Counted from the stretch's first letter, positions 1 to 56,840 are shown. The stretch is DNA of 64,000 bases from a bacterium (GCA_030429765.1 JAUIER010000021.1:1619-65618); one strand, 5' to 3'. Notes: generated from the letters alone by a model not told the origin. Numbers and translations: made by a program.

Positions 1-1647
1 GATGTAGATATCACGGCCCGCCAGTTCTAGTGGAGTGTAGGGTTTGACATTCTCGATCTTTTCCGGCGCGTAATACTTATGCGCCAGCAAGGTCGGCAGG
101 ATCTCAATCACCGATCCGACGATAACCGCAATGACAACCAGAACGGTAAAGAGCGCGGATAATCCCTCGAGATAACGGTGTCCCTGTTTGTCGGTCGTGA
201 ATTTACCGAGTGGTGGAGCTGAATACACCTCGGGTTCAGCCGGCTTGGAGGCCTTAATGGTCTTGAAGATGTTGTACATCATGATCACATACCCGGCCAG
301 ATACAGAAACCCGCCAAAGGCCCGCACGTAATACAGCGGAATGATCTTGGTTAAAGTCTCCACAAAGTCGGGATACACCAGGCGTGGCCCTTCCATGGCC
401 CGCCACATGAGCCCTTGGGTGATTCCCGCGGCCCACATCGAAAAGATGTACAAAAGAATCCCGGACATCGCCATCCAGAAATGAACATTTGCCAATTTTT
501 CGCTATAAAGCTCTGTCTTCCACAGCTTCGGCACGACATAGTACAAGATGGCAAAGATCATGAATCCGTTCCAGCCCAGAACCCCGGAATGCACGTGCCC
601 GATAATCCAGTCGGTGAAATGCGCCAGCGCGTTGACGGACTTAATCGACAACAACGGGCCTTCAAACGTGGACATCCCGTAGAACGTCACGGCCGCGACG
701 AGGAATTTGAGGATTGGCTCCTTCCTCACGCGATGCCACGCCCCGCGCATCGTCAACAGACCGTTGATCATCCCGCCCCAGCTCGGTGCCAACAGCATGA
801 TACTGAAGATCATCCCCAATGTTTGTGCCCAATCTGGTAAAGCGGAGTGCAGCAAATGATGCGGTCCGGTCCAGATGTAGATAAACACCAAGGCCCAGAA
901 ATGGATAATCGATAAACGATAGCTGTAGATCGGCCGATTGACCGCCTTGGGCAGATAGTAATACATCAGACCCAGATAAGGTGTTGTCAGGAAAAAGGCC
1001 ACGGCATTATGACCGTACCACCACTGAACCAGTGCGTCCTGGACTCCGGCATATACCGGATAGCTCTTGAATAGTGATACCGGCAGCGCGATGGAGTTGA
1101 CAATATGCAGCAACGCGACCGTTATAATCGAGGCCAGATAAAACCAGATAGCCACATACAGATGGCGTTCACGTCGTCGAGCGATCATCCCAAAGAAATT
1201 GACGGCAAACGCCACCCAGACCACCGCGATTAAGATGTCGATCGGCCATTCAAGTTCCGCGTACTCCTTGCCCGTCGTAATCCCGAGCGGTAAGGTGATT
1301 GCCGCGAGGACAATGATTAATTGCCACCCCCAAAAATGTATCTTGCTCAGTGCATCGGAAAAAATCCGGGTTTTCAATAGTCGCTGCGAAGAATGATACA
1401 CCCCGGCAAAAATCGCGTTACCGGCAAATGCAAAGATGGCCGAATTCGTATGAAGCGGACGCAGACGACCAAATGTGAACCATGGGAGTTTAAAATTCAG
1501 CTGCCAGAAGGCCAGCTGACTAGCGATAAAAACGCCGGCTAACAAGGCCACAGCCCCCCAGATGATGGTCGCGAGGAAAAACAGTTTCGGCGTTTCCTCA
1601 TCGTATGTAAAGTGTTCGAGATTATCTTTGGACTTGGATTGACTCAT
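1..1647 (-). CDS. ccoNO: cbb3-type cytochrome c oxidase, fused subunits I and II (CcoN-CcoO). Partial: the 3' end runs off the window start.
   Basis: Uninterrupted 549-codon minus-strand frame starting at the ATG at 1645-1647 (not in the ORF track because it has no stop in the window). The translation contains the CcoN haem/CuB histidine region HFTDWIIGHVHSGVLGW. Its C-terminal part matches the CcoO N-terminus (TM helix then KPYTPLELAGRDIYI). Confidence 0.85.
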   Translation of the reverse strand, partial: MSQSKSKDNLEHFTYDEETPKLFFLATIIWGAVALLAGVFIASQLAFWQLNFKLPWFTFGRLRPLHTNSAIFAFAGNAIFAGVYHSSQRLLKTRIFSDALSKIHFWGWQLIIVLAAITLPLGITTGKEYAELEWPIDILIAVVWVAFAVNFFGMIARRRERHLYVAIWFYLASIITVALLHIVNSIALPVSLFKSYPVYAGVQDALVQWWYGHNAVAFFLTTPYLGLMYYYLPKAVNRPIYSYRLSIIHFWALVFIYIWTGPHHLLHSALPDWAQTLGMIFSIMLLAPSWGGMINGLLTMRGAWHRVRKEPILKFLVAAVTFYGMSTFEGPLLSIKSVNALAHFTDWIIGHVHSGVLGWNGFMIFAILYYVVPKLWKTELYSEKLANVHFWMAMSGILLYIFSMWAAGITQGLMWRAMEGPRLVYPDFVETLTKIIPLYYVRAFGGFLYLAGYVIMMYNIFKTIKASKPAEPEVYSAPPLGKFTTDKQGHRYLEGLSALFTVLVVIAVIVGSVIEILPTLLAHKYYAPEKIENVKPYTPLELAGRDIYI

Positions 1648-1766
1648 AGGACACCTATTGGTTTAATAACATGTGTTTATCTGATTTATTATTTTGTACC
1701 TTAATATTAAATGAGAAATCAACATTCTTCAAGAGAAATGTCTGTTTTTGATGGGTTTTTATCCAC

Positions 1767-1973
1767 TTATTCATTCGATTTTTCTTCCGGATTATCGGTT
1801 TTAATCTCAGATCGCTCCTGCTCGGGCTGATCGCTTTCATCGTCGATCAGTATCCGATGAGATGGCGTGACAATATCATCATACTGTCCATTCTTAGCCG
1901 CCCAGATGTAGGCGATCAAAAAGCCCAATCCGAATAACAGTGTCATTGGAAACAGCAATGCGATAATTTCCAT
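1767..1973 (-). CDS. ccoS: cbb3 oxidase maturation protein CcoS/FixS
   Basis: 68 aa with a single TM helix and the conserved GQYDD motif; sits between ccoI and ccoNO. Confidence 0.75.
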   Translation of the reverse strand: MEIIALLFPMTLLFGLGFLIAYIWAAKNGQYDDIVTPSHRILIDDESDQPEQERSEIKTDNPEEKSNE

Positions 1974-1983
1974 TTACCTTCCC

Positions 1984-4383
1984 TCAATTGCGCCGGATAC
2001 GTATGCCGAAATAGGATGATAATAACACCGTCAGTGAACTCACCGGCATAATGATCGCGGCGCCCAGCGGGTTAATCAACCCCATCACCGCGAGAGTGAT
2101 CCCGGCTGCGTTGTACAAAATCGATATCGTCAGATTCCGTTTGACCGTGGATCGTGTGTCCCTTGCCACATCCAGTAATTTGGGTACGGATTCTATGCCA
2201 GGTTTCAATAAGTAAACATCAGACGATCGAAAGCTTACTTCCAGACTGCCCTGCACCGCTATGGAGACAAAAGCCGAGGCCAGCGCGACCGCATCATTGG
2301 CACCATCGCCGATCATGAGCGCCTTGGGCGCATTCTCAATGATCCGCTGCTTGTCTTCCGGATACATCGCGGCCTGAAACTCGCGAATCCCGAGTTGCTG
2401 AGCCACATTCTCCGCTACACTGGTGCTGTCACCAGTGAGCATGGTGACGTCGCCCAAGCGCTTTTGCAAACCGGTAACGGCGCCGTAAGATGACTGGCGA
2501 ATTTCATCACCCAGTCGGATTTGATCAATCAACTCTCCATCGACCAAAACCCCGACTTGCGTGGTGATCACATCGGTGCCTGCTGGACTGCTTGATGGTG
2601 TATGATCCGCCCGAATCTCTAATCGGCGACCATCAATGGTTCCCTGAACCCCTTGACCAATCACTTCTGCGTAATCCGTTAACGTGATCGTATTGACATC
2701 GTCAAGCTGACCCGAGGCATATTGCCGGATCGCGACACCGATCGGATGACGCGATTCTTTTTCCAGGGCGTAGGCCTCGGCATAGAGCGGCTGATGTTCA
2801 TCCTTGGCCCCCCAATTCAGCACCTTGAATCCACCGGTGGTTAATGTACCGGTCTTGTCGATAAATACCTGATCCGTTACGGCCAGTCGCTCAAGCACCT
2901 CGGGTCCTTTGAGCAGCGCGCCGAGTATCGCGCTGCATTTTAATCCGATGGTATACGCAAGCGGTGTCGCCAATGCTAGGGCGCATGGACAGGCTACAAT
3001 AATCAGGGCCAGTGCGCGCTTAAGGCCCTCTTCAAAATCCGACATTCCAAAGAACAATAAAATACCGCCGGCCATCGTGATAACGGCGAGTAAAAACCAT
3101 TTCGCGATGCGATCCGCCAGCGCAACGATCCGGGGCTTTTGTGCCTGCTCGATACTCCGGAAAATTTGTGACAAGCGCGTTTGATCGCCGACGGCTGTTA
3201 CTTCAATGGTAAACTGGCCGCTTTGATTGACCGTTCCCGCAAAGACCTCATGATCCGCGTTGACACGAACCGGGTGCGATTCGCCGGTCAACATGTGCAC
3301 ATCAACAAATCCATCCCCCGCCTTCACAATGCCATCGGCCGGCACCACGTCACCTTCCTGGATCTGCAACCTGTCCTTGAGATGTACTTTGTCGAGCGTC
3401 GTATCCACAAAACGCTGCTGCCCTTCATCCCAGCGATAGACATATTGCGGCATCAGAAACTCACTAAAATGCGCTCCGCCGGAAAATTTTTGATGCAGGC
3501 TTTTAAGAAAATAACGTGTCGATAACAACAGAAAAACAAAGATCGACAAGGAATCATAGTAGACTTCCGTCCGTCCGATACACAGGTGATACGTGCTGGC
3601 GGTGTACCCTAATAGCAGTGCCAAGGAAACCGGGACATCGATGTTGATTTGGCCCAGTCGGACGGCGGCGATGGCGCTCCGGTAAAACGGCCAGGCGCAA
3701 AATGAAATCACCGGCAGCATCAGGACAAAGCTCGACCACAAAAAGATTGTCAGTAATGTCCCTTCTACGCCCGAGTATATCGAGATAAATAAAAGCATGA
3801 TATTACCCGCGCAGAAGCCGGCTGTCCCGACCCTGATTAACTCACGATGAGTCTCACGCCGTCGTATTGACTCAATATCCTGAGAATTTTCTATCGGATG
3901 CGGCGTGTAGCCCAACTGCTGCAAGGTTGTGGCTAGCAAACTGAAGGAGCCATCGGCGGACAGTCTGACGCTCAAGATCGAAGAGCTCATATCCAGCTGC
4001 GCCTGCTCGACACCCGGCACCAGCATACCGATACGCTCAATCAACCACAGGCAGGCCACACAGTGGATTCCCTCCACATAGAATTTCATTTGCAGCTGAT
4101 CCGTACCATACGTGTATTTGAGCCGGTGTTCATCGCTGTCCAGATAATCGTAGCGGTGATCCGACACCGTAACCGGTTGGGACGGTGACAGCAATGGTGC
4201 GTCGCGTTTGATCCGGTAATACTGATCCAGATTATGCTTTGTCAAAATGCGATAGACCATTTTACATCCATCACAGCAAAAGACAGGTTTGTCTTGGGGC
4301 TGCGGCGAAGAAAATGTACGCGCTAGTGGAGTATCACAGTGAGTGCAATACCACGTCATCCGTTTATTCTGCAGTTCCGGCAT
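1984..4383 (-). CDS. ccoI: copper-translocating P1B-type ATPase CcoI/FixI
   Basis: CPC transmembrane metal site, DKTGTLT phosphorylation motif, GDGANDA hinge, and an N-terminal Cys-rich metal-binding region. The start was chosen at M23 of the track ORF so that it does not overlap the upstream gene. Confidence 0.85.
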   Translation of the reverse strand: MPELQNKRMTWYCTHCDTPLARTFSSPQPQDKPVFCCDGCKMVYRILTKHNLDQYYRIKRDAPLLSPSQPVTVSDHRYDYLDSDEHRLKYTYGTDQLQMKFYVEGIHCVACLWLIERIGMLVPGVEQAQLDMSSSILSVRLSADGSFSLLATTLQQLGYTPHPIENSQDIESIRRRETHRELIRVGTAGFCAGNIMLLFISIYSGVEGTLLTIFLWSSFVLMLPVISFCAWPFYRSAIAAVRLGQINIDVPVSLALLLGYTASTYHLCIGRTEVYYDSLSIFVFLLLSTRYFLKSLHQKFSGGAHFSEFLMPQYVYRWDEGQQRFVDTTLDKVHLKDRLQIQEGDVVPADGIVKAGDGFVDVHMLTGESHPVRVNADHEVFAGTVNQSGQFTIEVTAVGDQTRLSQIFRSIEQAQKPRIVALADRIAKWFLLAVITMAGGILLFFGMSDFEEGLKRALALIIVACPCALALATPLAYTIGLKCSAILGALLKGPEVLERLAVTDQVFIDKTGTLTTGGFKVLNWGAKDEHQPLYAEAYALEKESRHPIGVAIRQYASGQLDDVNTITLTDYAEVIGQGVQGTIDGRRLEIRADHTPSSSPAGTDVITTQVGVLVDGELIDQIRLGDEIRQSSYGAVTGLQKRLGDVTMLTGDSTSVAENVAQQLGIREFQAAMYPEDKQRIIENAPKALMIGDGANDAVALASAFVSIAVQGSLEVSFRSSDVYLLKPGIESVPKLLDVARDTRSTVKRNLTISILYNAAGITLAVMGLINPLGAAIIMPVSSLTVLLSSYFGIRIRRN

Positions 4384-4414
4384 AGTTGAACCATTGAGTT
4401 GGTGTTCAGACCGT

Positions 4415-5059
4415 CTACCGGGACGGACCTGATGACTTTCCAAACACAATCAGAAGCAGTTGCGGCCAGAACCGGGTAAACGGAAAAACAATTAAGATTA
4501 TGAATCCTGTGATGATATGAAGCTGCATCACATGCGGCAGCACCTGAACCGAATCCAGATGCGGCTGAAATTTTAAAATCGACCAGAGATAAGGTGAAAC
4601 ATTTGACGCGCCCCAGGAAGATCCCCAGCGATATACCGCGGCGGTCCAGCAACCCAGCATCACCTGGGATATCAGCAGGATCTCCATGATCATATCCATC
4701 GAGTTCGCGACGGTCCTGACCCGCGGATTAAACCAGCGGCGGAAAAATATCGATAACAAGGCGGTTAAGAAACCCAGCCCAAATACAAGCCCCGTCACTT
4801 CCAGCAGAACCATCCGTAACGGATCACCGTTAAAGGACAGCACCGCCGATGGAATCATCAAGGCGATGATGTGTCCGAACAGAATCACTAGAAATCCATA
4901 CTTCAATGGGACAACTTCCCAATCCAAATGCTCTCTGAGTTCACGTCGTCGCTCCGGCGTCAGTCTAAACACATGAGATTTGTGCTGAAAATAACTGCCG
5001 ACAAAAAACACAAGGATACTCAGATACGGCAACCAAGCATAAAGGAATTTTTGGGCCAT
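4415..5059 (-). CDS. NarI-family dihaem cytochrome b membrane protein (nitrate reductase gamma / DsrM / HdrE-like), with no NarGH partner nearby
   Basis: 214 aa with 5 TM helices. Block similarity to E. coli NarI, e.g. LPYLSILVFFVGSYF, ILFGHI, RRWFNPRVRT and VFPFTRF. The start codon overlaps the upstream stop (ATGA). Confidence 0.6.
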   Translation of the reverse strand: MAQKFLYAWLPYLSILVFFVGSYFQHKSHVFRLTPERRRELREHLDWEVVPLKYGFLVILFGHIIALMIPSAVLSFNGDPLRMVLLEVTGLVFGLGFLTALLSIFFRRWFNPRVRTVANSMDMIMEILLISQVMLGCWTAAVYRWGSSWGASNVSPYLWSILKFQPHLDSVQVLPHVMQLHIITGFIILIVFPFTRFWPQLLLIVFGKSSGPSR

Positions 5060-7239
5060 CAGTGTTTCCCTTCCCCTCTACGTTTATACCAAATACAGGA
5101 ATAAATTCCCAGCCATAAGAATACGCCCAGCCAGCCGGAGTACAACATGATACCCGAGTAATTTTTAGGGCTGGCGGATATTGGACGTGAGTTCACGTCC
5201 TTGAGATATGCCGTGATGTCAGTGATTTCATCGTCGGAAATGCTCTTTTTCCCATAGGCATCCATCTTCAACGGCGTGACAGGTTCTCGTAAAAATTGTG
5301 CAATCCCTTCGCTTCCCAGCCGAGAGTAGACGTCAGTCAAATCAGGACCGATGTTTCCGCCCGAAATAATCGACTCGTCCCGAATGCTATGACAACTGAT
5401 GCAGGATGGTCCCGCTCGAGTCAATCGTGCGGTTCCAATAAATAATTTCTTACCCTTTTGTTCAGGGGTCAGCACCAGCTCAAATTTTGGTTTGGAATCA
5501 CGTAATGCCGCGCTAGAAACCGCCGCCGTTGATGCCGCGGCCGCACTCGGCAGAACAGTCGGATTCTCCAGATATTTAATGATAGCTTCCACCTCTTCGT
5601 CTGTCAGATTCAAATCAGCCATCGGCACCTTGTATTCCTCCAGCAGCTCTATGGCGATCGGGTCTTCCTTGAGCATTTCAGACGGCTTTTGGATCATACG
5701 GACCAACCAGTCACGTTCCCGTCGTTGGGTCACATCCTTGAGATCCGGTCCGATCTTTTTGCCCTCACCAATCCCGTGACAGGCCGTGCAATGCATCTGG
5801 AACAAGGCCGCTCCATCATCGGAGGCCACCTCGACCGCCTGGGCCGCCGGTTCGTCCAGCGACTCTTCGCCGGAACCAACCTGGAGGAGAAAGTCCGCCA
5901 CCAACCGAAGCTTTTCATCCCCTAAGTGGGCGAATGACTGCATCTGCGCGAACTCTTCGCGTTTTTTACCCGGATTACGCGCCCAGCGGACAATGCCGTC
6001 GGGATTACCCTTATAAATGTCGTAGATCTCCGTAATCGGCGGCGCCGCAATGACGCGGTCATACGCGTGACAGGCCTTACAATTTTGAACAAAAATAGAA
6101 CGACCGGTTGGCGCGTCTGTGAGCGAATCACCTGCGTCCATCCCGGCAGCCAAACGCATCCGTGTTGCCAGTTCCAGACCGCGAAATTCCTGTGATTTCG
6201 TCTGAATTAATTTCTGATGAAAACGCAGGCTGTTGTTCCGGTATTGCTGTTGTCCCCAGCCAAGGGCAATGAACGCTGTCAAAAATAACAACACAATGAG
6301 CGAATGACGGCGCACACTCATCTGTCCGGCAAACAAATCTTGTGACAATTGGTATATGCTGATCAGGATCAGGGTCAACCCCAATCCGAACATGGTATAC
6401 ACGCCGGCGTCCAGTCCGATACGCGGCAGCGTCAAGACAAACAGCGGTCCAAACACGAGCAAGCCCACCGTCGACCATAGCGTCAGATGATAAAACAATC
6501 CGACAAGCTCTTTCACTGAAAAATCCTTGAGCTCTTTGGACTCCTCAATCTTCAGATGTAAAAATAATCCGGCAAAATACAGACCGGTAAGGCCAAGCGC
6601 GGCCATCAGAAAGGCCGCATATGTCGGAAAGACGTTGCCGATCTCCAATGCTGAGAAGAATCCCTGCACATGAACCCATTTGCCTGGAAACAGCATTAAG
6701 TTCACATTGCTGAGAATGATCAACGGAACAAATCCCAGCACCAGGATCGTCGCGACGCCGACACCGATGTGTCGGGCCTTTTGCGGTCCCCGCCATTTTT
6801 CCCAGGTGAATCGATGAGTGTACGCTAATACAAACCCCAGACACAAGATTGGCGCCAATCCAAGCCACGCCAATCCGGTCAGACTATTGGCGGTATAAAA
6901 CTGGGAGGCGTAACCCGCGCCGATAAAGAGCAACGGACCGATGGCCGAGACAATCGCCAGATTTTTGAACACCGTTACGCAACGGGATATGTACGCGGCC
7001 AATCGATCATAACGCTTGATCCGTAATCCCACACATTCTAAAATCACGCTTAGCAGCAAACTGCCGAAGGTTAATCCAACCAACACCGCATGAATGAATA
7101 CACCGATCACCACGGTGATATCCAAAACTTGAGGCCATACCGGTAAGCCCACCGGAATATCTCTTGGCACCGGTACACTAACGGCCCATGGCAATTGCGT
7201 ATGCAATACGTGCAGGAATGTTGACATCAGCTGGTTCAT
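5059..7239 (-). CDS. polytopic membrane protein fused to a trihaem c-type cytochrome domain, with a C-terminal TM helix; uncharacterised
   Basis: 726 aa. An N-terminal domain of about 330 aa has 8-9 predicted TM helices. It is followed by three CXXCH motifs (CKACH, CTACH, CISCH) and a final hydrophobic helix. ATGA overlaps on both sides. Confidence 0.6.
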   Translation of the reverse strand: MNQLMSTFLHVLHTQLPWAVSVPVPRDIPVGLPVWPQVLDITVVIGVFIHAVLVGLTFGSLLLSVILECVGLRIKRYDRLAAYISRCVTVFKNLAIVSAIGPLLFIGAGYASQFYTANSLTGLAWLGLAPILCLGFVLAYTHRFTWEKWRGPQKARHIGVGVATILVLGFVPLIILSNVNLMLFPGKWVHVQGFFSALEIGNVFPTYAAFLMAALGLTGLYFAGLFLHLKIEESKELKDFSVKELVGLFYHLTLWSTVGLLVFGPLFVLTLPRIGLDAGVYTMFGLGLTLILISIYQLSQDLFAGQMSVRRHSLIVLLFLTAFIALGWGQQQYRNNSLRFHQKLIQTKSQEFRGLELATRMRLAAGMDAGDSLTDAPTGRSIFVQNCKACHAYDRVIAAPPITEIYDIYKGNPDGIVRWARNPGKKREEFAQMQSFAHLGDEKLRLVADFLLQVGSGEESLDEPAAQAVEVASDDGAALFQMHCTACHGIGEGKKIGPDLKDVTQRRERDWLVRMIQKPSEMLKEDPIAIELLEEYKVPMADLNLTDEEVEAIIKYLENPTVLPSAAAASTAAVSSAALRDSKPKFELVLTPEQKGKKLFIGTARLTRAGPSCISCHSIRDESIISGGNIGPDLTDVYSRLGSEGIAQFLREPVTPLKMDAYGKKSISDDEITDITAYLKDVNSRPISASPKNYSGIMLYSGWLGVFLWLGIYSCIWYKRRGEGKH

Positions 7240-8672
7240 GGTGTCGGCTCCTCACGTTTGAGGTCTATGTCTTGATACTCCACGTCAGGAATCCCCATCA
7301 CCTGCGATCCACGAATGCGCCGACGGTTTTCCTTTATATTGTAAAGGAATGCAGACAGGGCCTTGACCTCATTTGAGTTGCCGGCAAATATCACTTTGTA
7401 AGGATGCGCTGATTCCATGTCACGGATGAAGGCCTGCGCTTGATCCTGTGACCATTGCCGTCCAAAGCGATGATTAAATCCTTTAATCAGACCATTAATA
7501 CCAGCGGCCGTATGACAGCTGGCGCAATTGAGTTTGAAGACGTCCTCACCCGCTTCAATCAGATTTGACTCCTTGGCCAACTTGTTCTGTGCGTATGTGG
7601 AATAGTGGAGAATACCATCCCGCTGGTAGACGGTGATTTCATCGGGACGAAGCTCATTGCTGGTGGAGAAACCGGCGATGGCATGCGGATATTGCAAGGC
7701 CAGCCGTGTCTTTTCAAAATGCCCCAGGATCAACAAACTCAGAAACGCCGGAAAAATCAATAATACCGTGGGGACTTTTTTGGGTTTCTGCATGCCGAAC
7801 AACATCACGATCACGATCGTCGATGAAATGAGGATCAGGACATGCGCGAACTCAAGATAACGGCCGGAAAAGGCCAATCCAGCCAGTGCGACCTCAAGAT
7901 TCGCTTTCATCGACACCGGAAACGCGCTCCAGTACCATTGAGCCCCTGCAATGGCGAATGATAACCAACTAAAGATCCATATCGCGACAGCCCTCACAAT
8001 CCGTCCGCGCAGATCAGAACCCGCTTCTGTATAACGCGCGGCAAAAAACCATATTAACAGCCCACCGGCTATGATTGATGATGTATAGCGATACGCCAGT
8101 TGCGGCCAATACATCGGGTTATAGAACCCGCCGCCCGCCTTGAGATGCAACGTCCAATGGCCGGGTTGGATCATAAATCCCAAAATAGATGAAAACACGC
8201 ACAGCAGGATAAACGCGGTCAGGCAGACGCCATGCCCCATCAGCATGTGACGTTGCTTGGCTTTGGTATCGTCGACTGACGCCCACGTCAAACTGTAGCG
8301 CAGCAAACAAGCGATGAGCCCCATGCCGGCAATCCAGGCGACCACCAACGGCCAGAAGAACACCCGTACAATCACGGCGAGTGTCTGCGGAGCGACCAAG
8401 GACGCGGATAACCACATCCCGATTCCCGCGAACAGTCCCACCGTGGTTACCAGCAAGAACATGACAAACGCGACCCGCTGCACAAAGCGGTCCAATGCAT
8501 CATCGTGATTGCGTGTCGCCATCCATTCAAACAGCACCAGCAATGGAAAACCGCCGATCAGAATCGGATGACTGACGCAAATGTGAATGACGGTCATCAT
8601 TGTCATCAAAAAGCGGTTACCGAAATAGTCCAGGTAGAAAACAGGAAAGTCCATTAACGTTGACCTCCCCAC
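7236..8672 (-). CDS. polytopic membrane protein fused to a monohaem c-type cytochrome domain; paralogue-like of the 726-aa protein
   Basis: 478 aa. An N-terminal domain of about 330 aa has multiple TM helices and a His-containing first helix. There is a single C-terminal CASCH motif. Its stop overlaps the downstream start (ATGA). Confidence 0.6.
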   Translation of the reverse strand: MGRSTLMDFPVFYLDYFGNRFLMTMMTVIHICVSHPILIGGFPLLVLFEWMATRNHDDALDRFVQRVAFVMFLLVTTVGLFAGIGMWLSASLVAPQTLAVIVRVFFWPLVVAWIAGMGLIACLLRYSLTWASVDDTKAKQRHMLMGHGVCLTAFILLCVFSSILGFMIQPGHWTLHLKAGGGFYNPMYWPQLAYRYTSSIIAGGLLIWFFAARYTEAGSDLRGRIVRAVAIWIFSWLSFAIAGAQWYWSAFPVSMKANLEVALAGLAFSGRYLEFAHVLILISSTIVIVMLFGMQKPKKVPTVLLIFPAFLSLLILGHFEKTRLALQYPHAIAGFSTSNELRPDEITVYQRDGILHYSTYAQNKLAKESNLIEAGEDVFKLNCASCHTAAGINGLIKGFNHRFGRQWSQDQAQAFIRDMESAHPYKVIFAGNSNEVKALSAFLYNIKENRRRIRGSQVMGIPDVEYQDIDLKREEPTP

Positions 8673-8714
8673 GGTTGTTCGGTGCCGATACGCATCACTA
8701 TTATTTTGTGCCGA

Positions 8715-9869
8715 TTACTCGTCATGATCCGGTCCATCTCTCAAACTAAATAAGGTTCCCTGTTTTGTGAATCTTAAGAACAATCCGATCCAAAGCCCGG
8801 TGATACAGATCAGTGAACTGAAATCCAGCCAGTGCACTTGAGGCTGCGGATACAAAGCCGGTTTGATCTGCCAGTACAAATCAACATACCGCATAATCGC
8901 GATGAGCGTGGCTACAAGACCCAGCGCGAGAAAATTCTCTTTGACCTTGCGAAGCAGTAATAACAGAAACGGCACCACAAAATGCAACGCAATGATCACA
9001 TAGATCCAGGTGAGCCATCCACCCTGTGTACGAACCAGGTACCACGGTGTTTCCTCCTGCAGGTTCCCCGACCAGATAATCAGAAATTGACTGAGACACA
9101 CATACACCCAAACCAGGTTGACACCAAACAAGAGATTACCCAGTTCGGCATTACGTTTGGCCGTATAATTGTTCTCTGTGATAAGCTGATTCTTTTGATA
9201 ATGAACTCCGACAACGATCCCGATAGCCAAAGCCGTCAGCGCGAAGCTGACCATATAAATCATCCCGAAGATCGTGGAGAACCAGTGCGCTTCGAGCGAC
9301 ATAATCAAATCATATGAGCAAAAGCTCACGGTCAAGGCATACACCAGGAGCCCAGCCCCGCTCACGCGCTGGAGCTTAAGCAGCAGTCCTTCATCCAGTG
9401 TGTGATCGTACTTGTCATGCATGTGATACAGGGCGATAAACAGGATGATCCATATGATCATGTAAATCGCCATGCGGGCGATAAAAAACGGTGTATTCAG
9501 ATAAGCCGCCTTGTGTTGCAGGATCGCGTCATGCGCCACGACATCGAGATGCGTCCATTCGTACAGCTCGTGCATGTTAAAGAGAATCGGCAGTGTCAGC
9601 GGCAACATCAGCGCGATATTTTTGATCGACCGGTCCAATAAGTTTCGAACGGCCATCCCCCATCCGCCACCGACGAGGTTGTGGATCATGATCAAAGCGG
9701 AACTCCCGACCGTGATTCCTAACCAAAAGACATACGCCACCAGATAGCCGGACGCAAATTCCTTGGGGCTTGACTGCGCGCCGATAAAGGTCATGATGCC
9801 GGCGATCACCCCGATGGCGAAACATCCGTTCGATACATTATTGATATGTCGTCTAGTTTGCAGATTCAT
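8715..9869 (-). CDS. actF: alternative complex III subunit ActF (NrfD-like membrane subunit)
   Basis: Polytopic membrane protein placed after actE. The start was moved to the internal ATG at 9869, which has an AAGGAG RBS. Confidence 0.7.
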   Translation of the reverse strand: MNLQTRRHINNVSNGCFAIGVIAGIMTFIGAQSSPKEFASGYLVAYVFWLGITVGSSALIMIHNLVGGGWGMAVRNLLDRSIKNIALMLPLTLPILFNMHELYEWTHLDVVAHDAILQHKAAYLNTPFFIARMAIYMIIWIILFIALYHMHDKYDHTLDEGLLLKLQRVSGAGLLVYALTVSFCSYDLIMSLEAHWFSTIFGMIYMVSFALTALAIGIVVGVHYQKNQLITENNYTAKRNAELGNLLFGVNLVWVYVCLSQFLIIWSGNLQEETPWYLVRTQGGWLTWIYVIIALHFVVPFLLLLLRKVKENFLALGLVATLIAIMRYVDLYWQIKPALYPQPQVHWLDFSSLICITGLWIGLFLRFTKQGTLFSLRDGPDHDE

Positions 9870-10461
9870 TTGACTCCTTGGAATCCTTGATCTGATCTTG
9901 TGTCGCGCTGGCCGCTTCCGGATCAGGCTTAAGTGACTGCAGATGCTGAATGTAGGCGACGACCGCCCAGCGATCTTCCGGGGACAACTGATTGGCATAA
10001 CTGGCCATCACACCGCGTCCATTGGTTATCACGTCATAAAAGTGTCCCGCCTCGGCCTGCCGCAGCCGTCGGTCATAAAATGACGGCGGTTGATTGAATC
10101 CGCGCTCGACCACCAGTCCGTTACCGCTCCCGGTCGGGCCATGGCAGACAATACAGTGAATGTTGTAACGATTGTGCCCGCGAAGGATGAGCTCATCGGT
10201 GATCTTTAATGGATTTTTCCGGATCAACTGATCCTTCATCCGACCCGTAAAATAGGCCTCGTCGTCCCGTAAAAATCCGCGCGCCACCGTTCCATTGACC
10301 AATGGACGTGAGGCTCGGCCATCCTTAAAGAATGAACTCGACTCATATGGCTTATAACGATTGCCGTCACGCATGTTGTCACATCCGACCGTCGTTATAA
10401 TGAATATAAGCGACAATCCCATGAGAAGCGTGCTGATTTTATTTTTCGATAATTTCAACAT
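9853..10461 (-). CDS. actE: alternative complex III subunit ActE (monohaem cytochrome c lipoprotein)
   Basis: Signal/lipobox (TTVGC) and a single CIVCHG haem motif; position within the act operon. Confidence 0.75.
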   Translation of the reverse strand: MLKLSKNKISTLLMGLSLIFIITTVGCDNMRDGNRYKPYESSSFFKDGRASRPLVNGTVARGFLRDDEAYFTGRMKDQLIRKNPLKITDELILRGHNRYNIHCIVCHGPTGSGNGLVVERGFNQPPSFYDRRLRQAEAGHFYDVITNGRGVMASYANQLSPEDRWAVVAYIQHLQSLKPDPEAASATQDQIKDSKESNESAN

Positions 10462-10993
10462 AACTTGAACCCAAACCTTCTAAAAATGCCTGACACTTCT
10501 TGGCGTCAAATTCACCGGAATCAGCCTCCACGCACAAAAAGAATTTGTCACGCGTGACGCCTTCAAAACGATCGACCTTAAAGACCGGATGATACGGTCG
10601 CGGCAGACCATTGCGTCCGATCATGCCAAAGACGGCGGTGAACGCTGCGAAGAGGACCGCCAGCTCAAATATGATCGGAATAAATGACACCCAGCTGTTG
10701 AACGGACGTCCGCCGACATTGTACGGATAAGCGATCACCGATAGATAATACTGCAGACCAAAACCGGTCAACGCGCCGATCAATCCGCCGCAGAAAACCG
10801 CCACCAGCAAGTTCGAGGGGCGATGGCCCAACGCCTCACTGAGACCGTGCACAGGAAACGGACTATAGGCATCCATCTGCACGTATCCTTTTTTGCGGGA
10901 TTCGTTAACGGCATGGATCAGATCGTCGGATGTGCTGAACTCCGCGATTACACCATGGTAAATGGATGAATTATCTGATGCTTTCTTGGTCAT
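10439..10993 (-). CDS. actD: alternative complex III subunit ActD (membrane-anchored)
   Basis: About 190 aa with C-terminal TM helices, lying between actC and actE. Confidence 0.55.
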   Translation of the reverse strand: MTKKASDNSSIYHGVIAEFSTSDDLIHAVNESRKKGYVQMDAYSPFPVHGLSEALGHRPSNLLVAVFCGGLIGALTGFGLQYYLSVIAYPYNVGGRPFNSWVSFIPIIFELAVLFAAFTAVFGMIGRNGLPRPYHPVFKVDRFEGVTRDKFFLCVEADSGEFDAKKCQAFLEGLGSSYVEIIEK

Positions 10994-12380
10994 GATCAAT
11001 CCTGTTATGTTTTCGCTCATGCGCCAGATGCTGCAGCTCCGAAATGGCGATAATCGGCATGATGCGGATAAACATTAACGTTAAGAATAAAAATAGTCCG
11101 ATGGACCCGATATAAGTTGTCCAGTCCCAAACCGTCGGGGTATACATCCCCCATGATGACGGCAGGTAATCCCGATGGAGGCTGGTAACGACGATAATAA
11201 AACGCTCGAGCCACATGCCGGTGTTCACCACTAGCGAGATAATAAACAAGACCAGCATATTTTTACGCAGCTTCGGCGACCATAATAATTGAGGAATGAT
11301 GGCATTGCACGCAATCAGGGCCCAATAGAACGGTGCGTACGGTCCGGTCATCCGGTTCCAGATCATAAATCCCTCATACTGACTCGCGCTGTACCATCCC
11401 ATGAATGCCTCCATCGCATAGCCGTAGGTAACGATCATCCCGGTCACCAGCATAACCTTGGCCATGTTATCCATGTGCTTGTCGGTGATATAACCTTCGA
11501 GGCGATAGATCTTGCGGATCGGAATACTGAGTGTGACAACCATCGCGAACCCGGAAAAGATCGCGCCCGCGACAAAGTATGGCGGAAATATCGTTGCGTG
11601 CCATCCCGGAATGACCGAGACCGCAAAGTCAAAACCCACGATCGTGTGAACCGAAATAACCAGAGGCGCCGCCAGCCCGGCCAATACCTTGTAGGCCTTT
11701 TCATAGCGTTCCCAGTGACGTGCCGATCCCCGCCACCCCAATGAGATGACGGCGTAAATCGTCTTGACCACTTGATTCTTGGCGCGGTCACGCATACAGG
11801 CCAAATCCGGGATCAATCCAACGAACCAAAACAAGAACGAGACGGTCGCGTACGTCGATACGGCAAAAACGTCCCACAGCAGCGGGCTGCGAAACTGCGG
11901 CCAGATATCCATGGTGTTGGGATATGGAAACAACCAGTAGGCGCGGTCCGGTCGACCCACATGCAATAGTGGAAATAATCCGGCACACGCCACGGCAAAC
12001 AAGGTCATGGCCTCGGCAAAACGATTGATCGACGTGCGCCATTTCTGATGCAGTAATAAGAGAATGGCCGAAATAAAAGTCCCGGCATGTCCAATCCCGA
12101 CCCACCAGACGAAGTTGATAATCGCGAATCCCCACCCGACAGGAACATTGATCCCCCAGATACCGATTCCGTCATTAAACAACCGGTACAACGAGTACTT
12201 CAGCAGGGCCAGCATTGCGACCGCGCCGATAAATCCGATGATCCATCCACGGCGTGTCGGAGACAACACCAGGCCGGAGATTCGATCGGCGACATCGGCG
12301 TAGCTGCTGCGGTCATCATAAATCTCTGCCGCGTCGCGTACCGATGGGTCTACAGTTTTTCGTTTAGGTCGCGGGTTCAA
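10971..12380 (-). CDS. actC: alternative complex III subunit ActC (NrfD/PsrC-like quinol-interacting membrane subunit)
   Basis: 469 aa polytopic protein; start overlaps the actB stop. Confidence 0.75.
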   Translation of the reverse strand: MNPRPKRKTVDPSVRDAAEIYDDRSSYADVADRISGLVLSPTRRGWIIGFIGAVAMLALLKYSLYRLFNDGIGIWGINVPVGWGFAIINFVWWVGIGHAGTFISAILLLLHQKWRTSINRFAEAMTLFAVACAGLFPLLHVGRPDRAYWLFPYPNTMDIWPQFRSPLLWDVFAVSTYATVSFLFWFVGLIPDLACMRDRAKNQVVKTIYAVISLGWRGSARHWERYEKAYKVLAGLAAPLVISVHTIVGFDFAVSVIPGWHATIFPPYFVAGAIFSGFAMVVTLSIPIRKIYRLEGYITDKHMDNMAKVMLVTGMIVTYGYAMEAFMGWYSASQYEGFMIWNRMTGPYAPFYWALIACNAIIPQLLWSPKLRKNMLVLFIISLVVNTGMWLERFIIVVTSLHRDYLPSSWGMYTPTVWDWTTYIGSIGLFLFLTLMFIRIMPIIAISELQHLAHERKHNRIDHDQESIR

Positions 12381-15300
12381 TGCTTGCCTCCTCCATGTTC
12401 AGAATGATCATGGACCGTTACATGTGCCGCCTTGGGTTTATGAGTTTCCAGTTTTGGATTCGGATTGCGAACGCGCGCTAAATAACTCAGTCGTGGGAAC
12501 GTATTCAGCTCAGTGAGCAGGCCATAGTTCAGCGGTGATTCCTTTAGACGGCTGACCTCGCTCTGGGGATCACGGATATTTCCGAAGCTGATCGCCTCGG
12601 CCGGGCAGACAGCCTGGCAGGCGGTCACCACTTCGCCATCTTTGATATCACGATTTTCTTTCTTGGCGGTAATGCGGGCCTGGTTAATGCGCTGCACACA
12701 GAATGTACACTTTTCCATGACCCCGCGGTTACGCACGGTCACATCGGGATTGCTGCGCAGCTTGGCCGGTTCACTATGCTTGTCCGCGTACTGGAAAAAG
12801 TTGAAACGTCGAACCTTGTATGGACAGTTATTCGAACAGTAACGGGTCCCCACGCAACGGTTATAGGTCATCTCATTCAGGCCTTCATCCGAATGACCTG
12901 TCGCCTGGACCGGACAAACCGGCTCGCATGGCGCGTTCTCACAATGCATACACATCACCGGCTGATGATGAGTCGTCGGCTGATCGATCTCGCCTTCATA
13001 GTAATTATCGACACGGATCCAGTGCATCTCGCGTCCTCGACGCACTTCTTCTTTTCCGACGACCGGTGTATTGTTCTCAGATTGACAGGCCGTCACACAC
13101 GCATTGCAGCCGACACATTGATTGAGATTGACCGTCATCCCCCATTGATGCGGAGCGCGGTCGGGATGTTGGGGATACATCGACAGCTCATACCCCTGCG
13201 TCCCGTGGGCATGCGCGTGCGCAAAGTCCGGATGATGCTTGTACTCGTCGAGACTGGCGGAACGAACCAATTCCCGTCCGTGCATGCTGTGATGGATCTG
13301 CGTCGACGCGAGCCCATATTTGATCCCCAATTTGGAAATCGTCGCGCCGGAGAGTCGCCACTGATGTTCGGCTGTTTGTAATTTCGTGACATTGAAGCCC
13401 TTGTCATTGCCAAGCGCGCCACTATGCTTGCGGCCGTAGCCTAAATAGGCGCTGACCGATTGGGCGCAATGGCCCGGTACGATCCAAACCGGCAAACTGA
13501 CACGAACCTTTCCGTTGGAGACTTCGACCATATCTTCATTTTCAAGTTTGTACTTCTCTGCGGTCGCCGGACTGACTAACAAGGCGTTGTCCCAGGTGAT
13601 CTTGGTTAATGGTTTGGGCAATTCCTGAAGCCAACCGTTGTTGGCAAAACGTCCGTCCCATACCGCCGGATCCGGATTGATCACCACTTCGATCTGATCG
13701 GCCTTGGTGCTGGACGGTCGATTGAGCTTACCCAGATCATCGGCGGCAAATTCCACCCGCATCTGGACTTTCTTTGGTTTAAAAGCCGTGCGCGCGACAA
13801 ACCCGTCATGTAAAGCCTTTCGCCAAACCAGTTCAAAGTCAACCGTCTTGGATGTTGATTTCCAGTAATCACGGACAATATCATGCGCCGTCTTAGCATC
13901 GGCGGAAATCAGTCCATGCAGAAACTCGTGCACAGAAATTCCGTTGTATAACGGATGAATCAAAGGCTGCATCATGGTCACGGTGCCGTCGGATGCCCGC
14001 CCGTCTGAAAACATTTCGAGAAAATGCATGGACGGAACATGCCACTGACAGGCCATGGCGGTTTCGTCCCGGTATAATCCAAAATGAACGGTATTCGATA
14101 CTTTGCCTAAATGAGTTTCAAAAGATAGCTCTCTTGCTGTGGTATATACTGGGTTGGTGTTCAGCATGATCAGCGTGTTGACGTCACCTTTTTCCATCGC
14201 CTGAGACAAATCGCTGATCGATTCCTGCAAGAGCTGCGGATTGCTTGCGACTGGCTGAATATAATTGACCGTGCGCGACACATTGTCGAGCCGGGCATTC
14301 ATACTGTGAGCCAATGCCTGCACCCATTGCGGCGCGCGGTCGCCCGCGATCACCAGACTTTCCCCCCGATGTTTGATTAGATCTTCGGCCACGACATGGA
14401 CCCATTTGATTTCCTCGTTTGAAAGCTTTCCATCGACAATGGCGGGAAATTTGACGCCGATCTGTTGAGCGAGAGCGCAAACCATTAACGTCATGCGGTA
14501 GCTGTTTTTGGCCATCAGATGATCGGCATTGGCCCCCGTCATCGTAGGAGACGATTCTATCGCGTAGAGCCGGTTCATTTGATTGACATCGCTGTCAACG
14601 ACACGTCGTCGGGCCGTAAACTCCCGGGTGTAGCGAAGATGCCCCGGTTGATTGTCCATAAAATTAGAATCCAGCGCCAAGATGGTTCGCGCACGTTTAA
14701 AATCATAGATCGGATCAACGTACTCGCCGAAGACCATTTGCTGTGCTCGACGGGCGTCGTCACTATGGATCGCCTCATGCTGATGCCATTTGATGCCCGG
14801 AAAGGCCTTGATCACCTGCCGGATCTGACTGGCTAAGGTCGGTGACACAATCCGGTCGGTGAGTATCCGCACGCCTTTACCCTCAGAATCCTTGAGTTCT
14901 TTGCGCAGAAAGCGATATAAATTGTTGATCGAATCTGCCTGACCATCCTTCAACACCTGGTTTGAGCGGTCAGGGTCGTAGAGGCCTAACACGGCGGACT
15001 GATGAATGGCGCTCGTCGCCCCCAGACTATCGACGTGCTCGGGATTGCCTTCGATCTTGGTCGGTCGCCCCATGTGGGATTCAACCAGTAGACCTGTTGA
15101 TGAACCGTTGAACGGCATGGATGTCGCAAAGTAAAGCGGCTTGCCCGGAATGATTTCCTCCGGAGCCGTGACGTACGGCACAATTTTTTCAAGCGGTTGA
15201 CGACTGCAGCCCGGCAGCATGGTCATCACCAGCGAGGCACCCATCAATTTGAGAAAATCGCGCCGGCTCAAATCCTCTTTGGCGGTCATCGGCGCCGAAC

Positions 15301-15439
15301 CATGCGGATACTCTTCCTGCAGAAACTGATTGAATTCCTCGGTCTCGGCCAGTTCATCCAGGCTGCGCCAGAATTTTTCTCCCTGCCGATTCTGCAGTTT
15401 GGCTCGAATTTGCTGTATTGTCATTTTTTTCTTGGCCAT
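12377..15439 (-). CDS. actB: alternative complex III subunit ActB (Tat-exported molybdopterin-oxidoreductase-like domain plus 4Fe-4S ferredoxin domain)
   Basis: 1020 aa. Twin-arginine signal (SRRDFLKLMGASL). C-terminal Cys clusters CVGCNACVTAC, CMHCENAPCEPVCP, CSNNCP and CTFC. Confidence 0.85.
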   Translation of the reverse strand: MAKKKMTIQQIRAKLQNRQGEKFWRSLDELAETEEFNQFLQEEYPHGSAPMTAKEDLSRRDFLKLMGASLVMTMLPGCSRQPLEKIVPYVTAPEEIIPGKPLYFATSMPFNGSSTGLLVESHMGRPTKIEGNPEHVDSLGATSAIHQSAVLGLYDPDRSNQVLKDGQADSINNLYRFLRKELKDSEGKGVRILTDRIVSPTLASQIRQVIKAFPGIKWHQHEAIHSDDARRAQQMVFGEYVDPIYDFKRARTILALDSNFMDNQPGHLRYTREFTARRRVVDSDVNQMNRLYAIESSPTMTGANADHLMAKNSYRMTLMVCALAQQIGVKFPAIVDGKLSNEEIKWVHVVAEDLIKHRGESLVIAGDRAPQWVQALAHSMNARLDNVSRTVNYIQPVASNPQLLQESISDLSQAMEKGDVNTLIMLNTNPVYTTARELSFETHLGKVSNTVHFGLYRDETAMACQWHVPSMHFLEMFSDGRASDGTVTMMQPLIHPLYNGISVHEFLHGLISADAKTAHDIVRDYWKSTSKTVDFELVWRKALHDGFVARTAFKPKKVQMRVEFAADDLGKLNRPSSTKADQIEVVINPDPAVWDGRFANNGWLQELPKPLTKITWDNALLVSPATAEKYKLENEDMVEVSNGKVRVSLPVWIVPGHCAQSVSAYLGYGRKHSGALGNDKGFNVTKLQTAEHQWRLSGATISKLGIKYGLASTQIHHSMHGRELVRSASLDEYKHHPDFAHAHAHGTQGYELSMYPQHPDRAPHQWGMTVNLNQCVGCNACVTACQSENNTPVVGKEEVRRGREMHWIRVDNYYEGEIDQPTTHHQPVMCMHCENAPCEPVCPVQATGHSDEGLNEMTYNRCVGTRYCSNNCPYKVRRFNFFQYADKHSEPAKLRSNPDVTVRNRGVMEKCTFCVQRINQARITAKKENRDIKDGEVVTACQAVCPAEAISFGNIRDPQSEVSRLKESPLNYGLLTELNTFPRLSYLARVRNPNPKLETHKPKAAHVTVHDHSEHGGGKH

Positions 15440-15457
15440 AGTCTCTCTACACCCTCA

Positions 15458-16198
15458 TTAACGGTGGCACGCTGAACAATTCATCGGACGGTTGACTTTT
15501 TGTAATTGATACTGATTTGGATTAATCTGTGCGTCTTTATCAGCAAATTCCTCCAAAAATCTGACATATGTCGACATATCGTCGCTGGACGGATTCACCT
15601 GGGCTTGATTGGTCATTCGTGCGGAACCTGAATCCCCGGTGACCATATCAAAAACATCTTTGGGTTCCCGCCTGTTGATCTCCGGATGCCGGTGACAATC
15701 CAGACACCATTTCATCAGCAGTGTATTGTCGCGGCTGACCACCTCCATTTGATCGATTTGTCCGTGACAGGTGACACAACCGATCCCTTTGTTGACGTGA
15801 ATGCTGTGATCGAAATAGACATGATCGGGAAGGTCATGAACTCTGACCCATTCGATAGGCATATTGGAGGCCTTGCTGGCATGCAATGGAGCCAGCAGCG
15901 GACTGTCTTTTTTGACAACTGAGTGGCACTTTAGACAAGTATCCGTCGTCGGGATGCCGGCAAACGAAGAGTTCTCGACAGATGTATGACAAAACCGGCA
16001 GTCCATTTGTAATTGCCCCACATGCAGTTCATGACTGAATGGGATAGGCTGCTGTTTTTCTTTCCCCACTTGAGTATAAATGGGTGAGCGTACATACGAG
16101 TACCCCATAAATCCCAGCAACGCGACTGTGCCCGCCGCCAGTAATAAACTTAACACGGATATTTTGTTCCAGATGGGTTGTCTAAACGGATACGGCAT
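15458..16198 (-). CDS. actA: alternative complex III subunit ActA (pentahaem cytochrome c)
   Basis: N-terminal TM helix plus five CXXCH motifs (CRFCH, CLKCH, CVTCH, CLDCH, CSACH). Confidence 0.85.
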   Translation of the reverse strand: MPYPFRQPIWNKISVLSLLLAAGTVALLGFMGYSYVRSPIYTQVGKEKQQPIPFSHELHVGQLQMDCRFCHTSVENSSFAGIPTTDTCLKCHSVVKKDSPLLAPLHASKASNMPIEWVRVHDLPDHVYFDHSIHVNKGIGCVTCHGQIDQMEVVSRDNTLLMKWCLDCHRHPEINRREPKDVFDMVTGDSGSARMTNQAQVNPSSDDMSTYVRFLEEFADKDAQINPNQYQLQKVNRPMNCSACHR

Positions 16199-16369: not shown

Positions 16370-17275
16370 CTAAAAATGCAGCAGCAAGTTCACGTAAAGC
16401 CGTGAATCGAGTAAGTCGTCACGGTCCGACACGGTTTCTTCCCAGGCGGCACCTAGCTGTACATTGTCGGTTAGCAGGTAACGAAATCCGGCTGCTAAAG
16501 TAAGTGTTGTTCCGACGTTGGAGGATCCCAGGTTTAATACGTCATGCCCCTCGACGCCCACGGCCACTCTTTTGCCTTCGTCAATTGTACTGATCCCGTT
16601 AAATTCCAGAATCGGATAGAACTTTGGTAAGAGTTCATAGTCAAAGTGAATCGAATAATGCAGCTGACTGGTATTATCGGATCCATCAATCGCCAGATTG
16701 GTACCGATATTTCCCTGTACACCAAATTTCCCCCAATGCTTGGCTCCACTCACAAACAAATCGATAAATCCGTCTCCATGCCCTTGCAGTGATATGCCGG
16801 AGGTATCGATATCTCCTACCGGAATCTCGTATCGAGCCCCGGCCGTAACAATGTAATCATCGACTTCACTTTGAATTAAGGCGTACTTAAAACCAATAGC
16901 GATATTCGCCCCGCCCTCGGTATCAGAGAGCACGTTACCGAAGTGAAAGTCAGCAAATCCATCCTTGGTGGCGATTAATCCCAATCGGTCTGTCAGCGCC
17001 AATCGGGCTTGCGCCGCATACAAGTTTATCTGTCCGCCGCTGGTAATCGCGTCGTCCGGAATGATTTGATACCAGTACCATAGACTCGCTTCAGTCGTAA
17101 TGTAAGGTGTCTCGTTAAACAGCGCGTTACTCAATGGAGGAACATAACGCCGTTCCATGCCCGATGTGCTGCTGAAGGAGCCGCGGTCCCAGTCCCAGGC
17201 CGCTCCGGCCGAGGATGTAAACCCCAACGAAATTAGACTGATAAAACTGCCGATGACTAGTGTTTTGAACTTCAT
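16370..17275 (-). CDS. outer-membrane beta-barrel protein (MetA-pathway/phenol-degradation-like transporter family)
   Basis: Signal peptide, alternating amphipathic pattern, C-terminal Phe. Confidence 0.45.
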   Translation of the reverse strand: MKFKTLVIGSFISLISLGFTSSAGAAWDWDRGSFSSTSGMERRYVPPLSNALFNETPYITTEASLWYWYQIIPDDAITSGGQINLYAAQARLALTDRLGLIATKDGFADFHFGNVLSDTEGGANIAIGFKYALIQSEVDDYIVTAGARYEIPVGDIDTSGISLQGHGDGFIDLFVSGAKHWGKFGVQGNIGTNLAIDGSDNTSQLHYSIHFDYELLPKFYPILEFNGISTIDEGKRVAVGVEGHDVLNLGSSNVGTTLTLAAGFRYLLTDNVQLGAAWEETVSDRDDLLDSRLYVNLLLHF

Positions 17276-23831: not shown

Positions 23832-24147
23832 AAAAAGTTGTGTCCTTTGTTCGTTAAGTAAATTCGTTGACACCCGCCAATGGGTTGTATGTCCTGCAAA
23901 CCAACATCGCTGAGCGCCTGTATCTGCAATTATGAGCAATATTGAGCCAAATGTCAATTTTTGTTCACACAAGCTGTCCGGCAGAACGGAATATCCGCCT
24001 GACATCAAAGTCATTAATATAACACGGGTTGCCTAAAGTGCAACCCCTGGTTACAGGAATTGTTGTTCTGCAAGTTGGGCCTCAAAAATGCCACAGAATA
24101 GATTTTGGGTTTGCAAAATATCTCTAAGGCAGTATGATAGTAGTTCT

Positions 24148-27332: not shown

Positions 27333-27336
27333 CTCC

Positions 27337-56831: not shown

Positions 56832-56840
56832 TTTATCCTC

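Follow-up and report, generated by a model that had tools for sequence, protein, structure and literature searches.

A glutamate-less OR-C1-type member of the cytochrome bd superfamily, with a triheme anchored subunit and a NarI-derived cytochrome b, encoded between Alternative Complex III and cbb3 oxidase genes

The closest described relatives of the proteins considered here are the OR-C1 proteins within the cytochrome bd superfamily. OR-C1a and OR-C1b are, in the description of Murali, Gennis and Hemp (2021), adjacent CydA paralogues that have eight helices, no quinol site and a C-terminal periplasmic haem c, with His19 kept in both subunits and E99 and E107 kept in the ‘a’ subunit; in canonical bd oxidases, according to the same authors, E99 serves as a haem ligand and E107 belongs to the proton channel. 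OR-C enzymes are found in many phyla, and their membrane domain is not seen by Pfam, so that they are annotated only as ‘cytochrome c’. No biochemical characterisation of any OR-C enzyme was found in the literature searched, where an O2 reductase role for the family is put forward only as a hypothesis. The present work concerns a stretch of bacterial DNA of 64,000 nucleotides (GCA_030429765.1 JAUIER010000021.1:1619-65618), referred to below as the window, in which coordinates are counted from the first letter. In the window, three minus-strand open reading frames (ORFs), designated X1, X2 and X3, occupy the gap between actF, a gene of Alternative Complex III (ACIII), and ccoI, a gene of the cbb3 oxidase group. 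X1 is the ‘a’ subunit, and X2 the ‘b’ subunit, of an OR-C1-type protein of the cytochrome bd superfamily. The family is thus known; the variant, which combines an ‘a’ subunit without the glutamates, a triheme membrane-anchored ‘b’ subunit, a probably monohaem NarI descendant and a setting between ACIII and cbb3 genes, is without a description in the literature searched.

The membrane domains of X1 and X2 are not found by the searches that are usually applied to single proteins: they have no match in Pfam or NCBIfam, PF01654 detects none of 21 X1-family members, and phmmer searches of the PDB with the single X1 and X2 sequences match only cytochrome c domains. The X1-family profile, on the other hand, matches subunit I of the Geobacillus thermodenitrificans cytochrome bd (5DOQ_A) with E=6.3e-11 over residues 13-223, in an alignment that equates His24, Glu106 and Glu113 of the X1 family with H21, E101 and E108 of the Geobacillus protein, which are H19, E99 and E107 in E. 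coli. For X2, the full-length profile is swamped by cytochromes c when it is compared with the PDB, and the profile trimmed to the transmembrane domain gives no significant match there, so the link between X2 and CydA rests on profile-profile comparison and on fold search. X1 and X2 had been called paralogue-like from their general layout, and the comparison of the two bears this out: BLASTP reports 23% identity over 385 amino acids (aa; E=1e-3), and hhalign finds full-length homology between the two families (probability 98.9%, E=3.6e-17), with His50 of X2 aligned to His24 of X1. AlphaFold2 (AF2) models generated from the family alignments have mean confidence (pLDDT) values of 75 for X1 and 77 for X2, and both consist of eight transmembrane helices followed by cytochrome c domains. 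When these models are searched against the PDB with Foldseek, the top 20 matches of X1 are all cytochrome bd chains (best 5DOQ_A, E=1.2e-4) and the top 8 matches of X2 are all CydA (best 9R2G_A, E=3.6e-4). A direct connection to the published classification is also available: Table S7 of Murali 2021 lists the neighbouring genes 2595638911 (OR-C1a) and 2595638910 (OR-C1b) on a scaffold of Hydrotalea sandarakina, and that scaffold, LX80DRAFT_scaffold00003.3, is among the loci compared here (L083) and carries a pair of the same two families. The suggestion in the original prediction that these could be c-fused cytochrome bd-like proteins is therefore upheld by profile, fold and published family alike; its description of them as uncharacterised is right with respect to biochemistry and wrong with respect to the family, which already has the names OR-C1a and OR-C1b.

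Other memberships were considered and rejected. Foldseek places ActC, ActF and PsrC below all of the bd chains, at E>0.02, which disposes of an NrfD- or ActC-like origin, and neither a b561-type protein nor a PuuD-like urate oxidase has a supporting family or fold match. X1, X2 and X3 do not match any Act family of Pfam or NCBIfam, and ActA to ActF are all accounted for upstream.

What X1 and X2 have in common with CydAB (PDB 5DOQ, 6RKO) is the fold of the membrane domain, with a Foldseek TM-score of about 0.5-0.6, and homology at the level of sequence across the first four helices, the H19 position included. They differ from CydAB in several respects. X1 has no Q-loop and no ninth helix in the AF2 model, the quinol site and the haem b558 ligands H186 and M393 are absent (the H186 position is an invariant Arg189 in the alignment to 5DOQ_A), and so is the E445 region; the second subunit is a paralogue of CydA rather than CydB; and a haem c domain is fused to each subunit. 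With the OR-C1 enzymes of Murali they share adjacent CydA paralogues of eight transmembrane helices each, the lack of a Q-loop and of b558 ligands, the C-terminal periplasmic CXXCH, and a His19 equivalent in both window proteins. In contrast to those enzymes, the ‘a’ subunit of the window has no equivalents of E99 and E107, the ‘b’ subunit is extended to three haem c domains and a ninth transmembrane helix, and there is a NarI-like third gene product in a locus that lies between ACIII and cbb3 genes.

The topology of the two subunits was assigned from the AF2 helices together with the positive-inside rule. Lysine and arginine residues in the inside loops number about 14 in X1 and about 16 in X2, and in the periplasmic loops about 2 in each. 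Because CydA has a periplasmic N-terminus and eight helices are present, all four haem c domains of X1 and X2 are predicted to lie in the periplasm, where they can be matured, and not on the cytoplasmic side, where haem could not be loaded. The attachment motifs had been counted as one and three, and are found at residue 377 of X1 and at residues 387, 484 and 613 of X2; the extra C-terminal helix that had been noted in the tri-haem protein is the hydrophobic helix at residues 696-725, which in the family alignment is present only in P0001 and P0002. In a phmmer search of the PDB, the second haem c domain of X2 matches 2L4D (4e-16) and 3CP5 (1e-14), the latter being the monohaem cytochrome c from Rhodothermus marinus; the domain also resembles the cytochrome c domains of SCO1 fusions. 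There is no glutamate in the third transmembrane helix of X2. Position 209 of X2, at the periplasmic start of the fifth helix, may correspond to CydA H186, a correspondence of position rather than a result of alignment. As a separate observation on X1, residue 420 (7395-7397), the probable axial methionine of its haem c in the motif YMPPFPG, is a lysine in the window and a methionine in the related contig L004.

The extent to which this lineage has departed from its relatives can be read from a comparison set of 84 related loci that contain 83 X1-like and 85 X2-like sequences, the two adjoining each other in 82 of the 84. The lineage takes in the window together with the Logan contigs L004, L088 and L089; the variant is known from these alone and is very rare in public data. 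His24, His29, Glu106 and Glu113 are carried by 81 of the 83 X1-like sequences; the exceptions are X1 of the window, which has Ala106 and Leu113, and X1 of L004, which has Phe24, Gln106 and Leu113. His209 is likewise present in 83 of the 85 X2-like sequences and is replaced in the same two loci, by alanine in the window and by leucine in L004. These two are also the only tabulated loci in which X2 has three CXXCH motifs and the extra C-terminal helix. What this lineage has lost are the residues by which a bd-type site of O2 reduction is defined. The changes extend well beyond those residues, to 74 of 158 family-conserved positions in X1 (47%) and 32 of 105 in X2 (30%). X1 and X2 of the window and L004 are full-length at 45-54% identity, and because both have stayed intact despite this divergence, the two proteins are under selection in the clade and are not decaying.

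The relatives closest to X2 outside the clade belong to Zixibacteria and share about 46% identity with it. The families of X1 and X2 are spread over phyla that include Zixibacteria, Acidobacteriota, Verrucomicrobiota, Bacteroidota and Elusimicrobiota, and 447 relatives were found in GTDB representative genomes. One of the loci, L067, from a metagenome-assembled genome of Ignavibacteria, has an X2-like ORF (from about 9860) of 532 aa with two CXXCH motifs and no NarI-like neighbour, which may represent an intermediate architecture.

The third gene product, X3, matches PF02665 (NarI gamma) with E=3e-37 and 128.7 bits against a cut-off of 22.9, and has the 5-transmembrane topology of that family; against the NCBIfam narI equivalog it scores 70 bits, under the cut-off of 105. 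Its closest relatives outside the clade are four-His NarI proteins of 242 aa that are 43-47% identical to it, and the only two of these whose contigs were examined (P0150 and P0171) are encoded in cytochrome c-narG-narH-narJ-narI operons. This homology identifies X3 as the descendant of what was, to judge by its relatives, a genuine NarI. The haem ligands of NarI are H56 and H205 for haem bP and H66 and H187 for haem bD (PMC5338063). When X3 is aligned with E. coli NarI (1Q16_C/3EGW_C) and with the closest relatives, the distal bD ligands are retained as H63 (=H66) and H181 (=H187), and at the bP positions K53 replaces H56 and P199 replaces H205. The position of the quinol-site residue K86 is occupied by R82, and the closest four-His relatives have an arginine there as well. 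X3 also lacks about 28 C-terminal residues, which form the cytoplasmic tail, and its Ser-rich cytoplasmic loop is replaced. Compared with NarI (1Q16 chain C), X3 thus shares the five helices, the bD ligands and a basic residue at the K86 position, and differs in the exchange of H56 and H205 for Lys and Pro, the remodelled loop, the deletion of the NarH-facing tail and the lack of NarG or NarH nearby.

The K-H-R-H-P pattern at the ligand and quinol-site positions and the missing tail are common to 4 of 4 members of the X3 clade (P0143, P0144, P0145 and P0223). This clade is small: among 1.84 billion representative proteins there is one other X3-clade representative and the next match has 39% identity, and when X3 was scanned against metagenome contigs, no more than two were matched, both of them short and distant. 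These features predict an X3 with a single b haem, which would lie close to the periplasmic face and beside a quinol site, and with no surface for docking on the cytoplasmic side. The original prediction of a NarI-like dihaem b cytochrome is accordingly correct as to the family and incorrect as to the haems, as only the bD ligands are present. Its remark that no catalytic partner is nearby agrees with the flanks, which consist of ACIII and cco genes, and with the larger ORFs scanned in the window, in which there is no match to NarG or NarH; in L004, too, neither NarGH nor an analogue was found. A module that consists only of a haem on the periplasmic side and a quinol site would be a minimal quinol-interacting unit, and it may recur, since many NarI-family representatives share the ligand pattern.

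The reading favoured here, to which a probability of about 0.5 is given, is that X1-X2-X3 no longer reduces O2 and serves as a membrane-anchored electron-transfer module of the ACIII-cbb3 branch. Electrons would enter the module from the ActA and ActE haems of ACIII, from quinol oxidised at the periplasmic-side site of X3 with release of protons to the periplasm, or from both; they would pass through the haem b of X3 and the four c haems and would be handed on to the cbb3 oxidase. The 16 CydA-like helices would serve mainly as a scaffold, and O2 reduction would be left to cbb3. In a more specific and distinctly more tentative form, the evolutionary proposal is that a bd-superfamily oxidase was converted into a catalytically dead scaffold. 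Joined by a quinol site of NarI origin with one haem, and by a wire of four c haems, this scaffold would make up an adaptor complex not described before, through which ACIII, the quinol pool directly, or both, would be coupled physically and electronically to a cbb3 oxidase whose CcoP is monohaem. The original prediction had offered the wiring of ACIII to the oxidase as an alternative, and since the signature residues of an oxidase are missing from this lineage, it would be the more plausible account of function here. The losses are accompanied by gains, namely two haem c domains and an anchor on X2, and X3 itself.

The same residues bear on a different explanation, in which the trio is still a terminal oxidase: an OR-C1 bd-type O2 reductase that has been made quinol-dependent by a NarI-type quinol site, with electrons passing from quinol to the X3 haem b, the c haems and the haems at X1 H24 and X2 H50, and then to O2, and with protons supplied by some route other than the lost Glu channel. 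Membership of the bd superfamily is established, the window keeps both X1 H24 and X2 H50, and X3 keeps the distal haem ligands and the quinol-site arginine; OR-C enzymes have no quinol site of their own (Murali 2021), so the gain of one is sensible as architecture. Set against this, the glutamates, which 81 of the 83 relatives keep, are Ala/Leu or Gln/Leu here, a cbb3 oxidase is encoded immediately downstream, and the His19 equivalent is a phenylalanine in the sister locus L004, because of which the bd-type site is not conserved across the clade. An oxidase function is for these reasons regarded as unlikely, and the electron-transfer module is preferred to it.

The direction of electron flow can also be reversed, with periplasmic donors or cytochrome c feeding the c haems, the X3 haem b and finally the quinone pool, in a reverse or branched flow like that of lithotrophs. 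The several periplasmic c haems of X2, one of them in a SoxX-like domain, and the periplasmic-side quinone site of X3 would fit such a path. It would, however, run uphill through a single b haem, with no membrane-spanning haem pair by which the membrane potential could be exploited, and there is no sign of lithotrophy in the 64 kb window; this direction is considered very improbable.

Whether the three proteins belong together at all is a matter on which gene order in other genomes is informative. In L004 the order is actABCDEF-X1-X2-X3-ccoI-ccoS-ccoNO-ccoQ-ccoP-ccoG, followed by further genes; L088 begins at an X3 that is 85% identical and continues X3-ccoI-ccoS-ccoN; and in L089 an X2 of 727 aa precedes an identical X3. 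The CcoP of L004 (17901-18446) is a monohaem protein of 181 aa with a single CXXCH. An alternative partition of the locus is that X1 and X2 form a cytochrome c-dependent OR-C1 enzyme or a relay, and that X3 is a small cytochrome b in its own right, such as a factor with an accessory or assembly role that belongs to the cbb3 operon. The genes ccoI-ccoS-ccoN follow X3 in 3 of the 3 contigs that reach that far, and none of the other 83 OR-C1 loci carries X3, so that 83 of 84 have no NarI-like gene, as this partition would have it. Yet the stop codon of X2 overlaps the start codon of X3, and the X3 clade strictly co-occurs with the triheme, anchored X2, being found only beside it wherever the contig includes X2 (L004, L089). 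A NarI-like subunit is not known from described cbb3 operons. A separate X3 is accordingly held to be improbable, although less so than the reversed flow, and the joint electron-transfer module remains the preferred reading.

The connection to ACIII can be examined in the same way. ACIII genes lie no more than 10 kb from the OR-C1 pair in 6 of the 84 loci, and in the Elusimicrobiota loci L034 and L035 (about 800-11400) a canonical OR-C1a/OR-C1b pair with both glutamates follows actABCDEF directly on the same strand; in L034, the one of the two in which this was checked, the strand switches right after X2, which ends the operon. This suggests an ancestral unit of ACIII and OR-C1, and the presence of canonical OR-C1 behind actABCDEF in some phyla supports a cytochrome c-fed partnership with ACIII. 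The arrangement recalls ACIII-oxidase clusters and supercomplexes such as the ACIII-aa3 of Flavobacterium johnsoniae (PDB 6BTM), in which a cytochrome c-dependent terminal module likewise comes directly after actABCDEF; the module of the window differs in being bd-derived and not haem-copper, and in being followed by a complete cbb3 set. As an observation in their own right, L034 and L035 look like self-contained units of ACIII and a bd-like enzyme.

Several considerations weigh against the proposed electron-transfer module. The mechanism is built wholly from residue loss and gene order, and it is solely from gene order and translational coupling that a physical association is read, whether between X3 and X1/X2 or between the three proteins and ACIII or cbb3. 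The O2 reductase role from which the lineage would have departed is itself hypothetical for the family. The loss of E99 and E107 speaks against canonical bd chemistry and is not proof that haem binding or catalysis has been lost; window X1 keeps H24 and X2 keeps H50. The equation of X2 H209 with CydA H186 is positional, the trimmed-profile search having given no match at the level of sequence. A quinol-oxidising X3 beside a full ACIII also looks redundant. Finally, of the NarI-family representatives whose alignments cover the second and fifth transmembrane helices, about one third have no histidines at the bP positions, and for this reason a monohaem NarI-like protein is not diagnostic of a relay role. 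Those representatives (within P0224-P0372) often have an arginine at the H56 position and keep the distal pair. They possibly form a widespread class of monohaem NarI-like proteins.

The interest of the locus lies in the correlation that it displays between the loss of active-site residues and the gain of haem c domains, an anchor and a NarI-derived subunit, which amounts to a natural experiment in the repurposing of a respiratory enzyme. If the relay reading is true, it represents a new way of wiring ACIII to cbb3.

The features of the locus are collected in Table 1. The original prediction had described three coupled same-strand genes between actF and ccoI, and both the positions of the ORFs and the junctions between them are as it said: the stop codon of X1 and the start codon of X2 share an ATGA at 7236-7239, and in the sequence TGATG the TGA stop of X2 and the ATG start of X3 overlap by one base, at 5059. 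No convincing terminator was found between the genes of the locus. For X1 the most likely start is not the GTG at 8672 but the ATG at 8654, because the family N-terminus MDFP matches there; for ccoI it is the ATG at 4383, hence there is no overlap with X3.

Table 1. Coordinates of the genes, domains and key sites of the locus (window numbering; residue numbers refer to the respective protein).
Feature	Position (nt)	Residues	Strand	Description
X1	7236-8654		-	472 aa, OR-C1a-type CydA-like subunit
X1 transmembrane region		13-318	-	eight transmembrane helices (AF2)
X1 His24	8583-8585	24	-	equivalent of E. coli H19/Geobacillus H21, axial ligand of high-spin haem
X1 Ala106-Leu113	8316-8339	106-113	-	positions of family Glu106/Glu113, both replaced
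X1 haem c domain		~337-443	-	periplasmic class-I; PF13442, E=1.3e-6
X1 CASCH	7512-7526	377	-	haem c attachment motif
X2	5059-7239		-	726 aa, OR-C1b-type CydA-like subunit
X2 transmembrane region		36-337	-	eight transmembrane helices (AF2)
X2 His50	7090-7092	50	-	H19 equivalent; His in 83/83 X2-like sequences covering the position
X2 Ala209	6613-6615	209	-	family His position, periplasmic start of fifth transmembrane helix
X2 haem c domain 1	5860-6117		-	CKACH 6067-6081; present in all family members
X2 haem c domain 2	5560-5832		-	CTACH 5776-5790; lineage-specific extra
X2 haem c domain 3	5182-5472		-	CISCH 5389-5403; extra, SoxX-like, TIGR04485 E=1e-16
X2 ninth transmembrane helix	5065-5154	696-725	-	AF2 helix; tail KRRGEGKH; lineage-only C-terminal anchor
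X3	4415-5059		-	214 aa, NarI-derived 5-transmembrane cytochrome b
actABCDEF	8715-16198		-	ACIII, directly upstream of X1; Pfam/NCBIfam
actA	15458-16198		-	multihaem, five CXXCH
actB	12377-15439		-	FeS/molybdopterin-like
actC	10971-12380		-	NrfD family
actD	10439-11020		-	PF11821
actE	9853-10461		-	monohaem, one CXXCH
actF	8715 to ~9869		-	
ccoI	1984-4383		-	directly downstream of X3
ccoS	1767-1973		-	
fused ccoNO	from ~1650		-	runs off the window start

A number of further features were observed in the vicinity. Directly before actA there is a 301-aa ORF (16370-17275, minus strand) with a signal peptide and a C-terminal ...LLLHF, which has a faint match to an outer-membrane beta-barrel model; a sigma-70-like promoter that matches perfectly (12/12) lies upstream of it at 17375-17348. 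L004 also has a 301-aa gene before actA. After its cco genes, L004 encodes a separate monohaem cytochrome c of 119 aa and tatA.

Farther away, the window contains a fused trehalose-6-phosphate synthase/phosphatase (24088-26316, plus strand), an SCO1/SenC copper chaperone (26721-27410, minus strand) and three MscS-type channels (31959-32867, 39432-40334 and 47335-48585, minus strand), which give the neighbourhood a flavour of stress response and osmoprotection. A mobile-looking island is also present (51888-52931 on the plus strand; 55620-57776, 58714-59793 and 60722-63016 on the minus strand), and it carries a CBASS-like defence pair, in which a CD-NTase (SMODS/DncV-like, 403 aa) stands beside a patatin phospholipase effector (311 aa), together with a tyrosine integrase, an rve_3 transposase and a primase-like protein.

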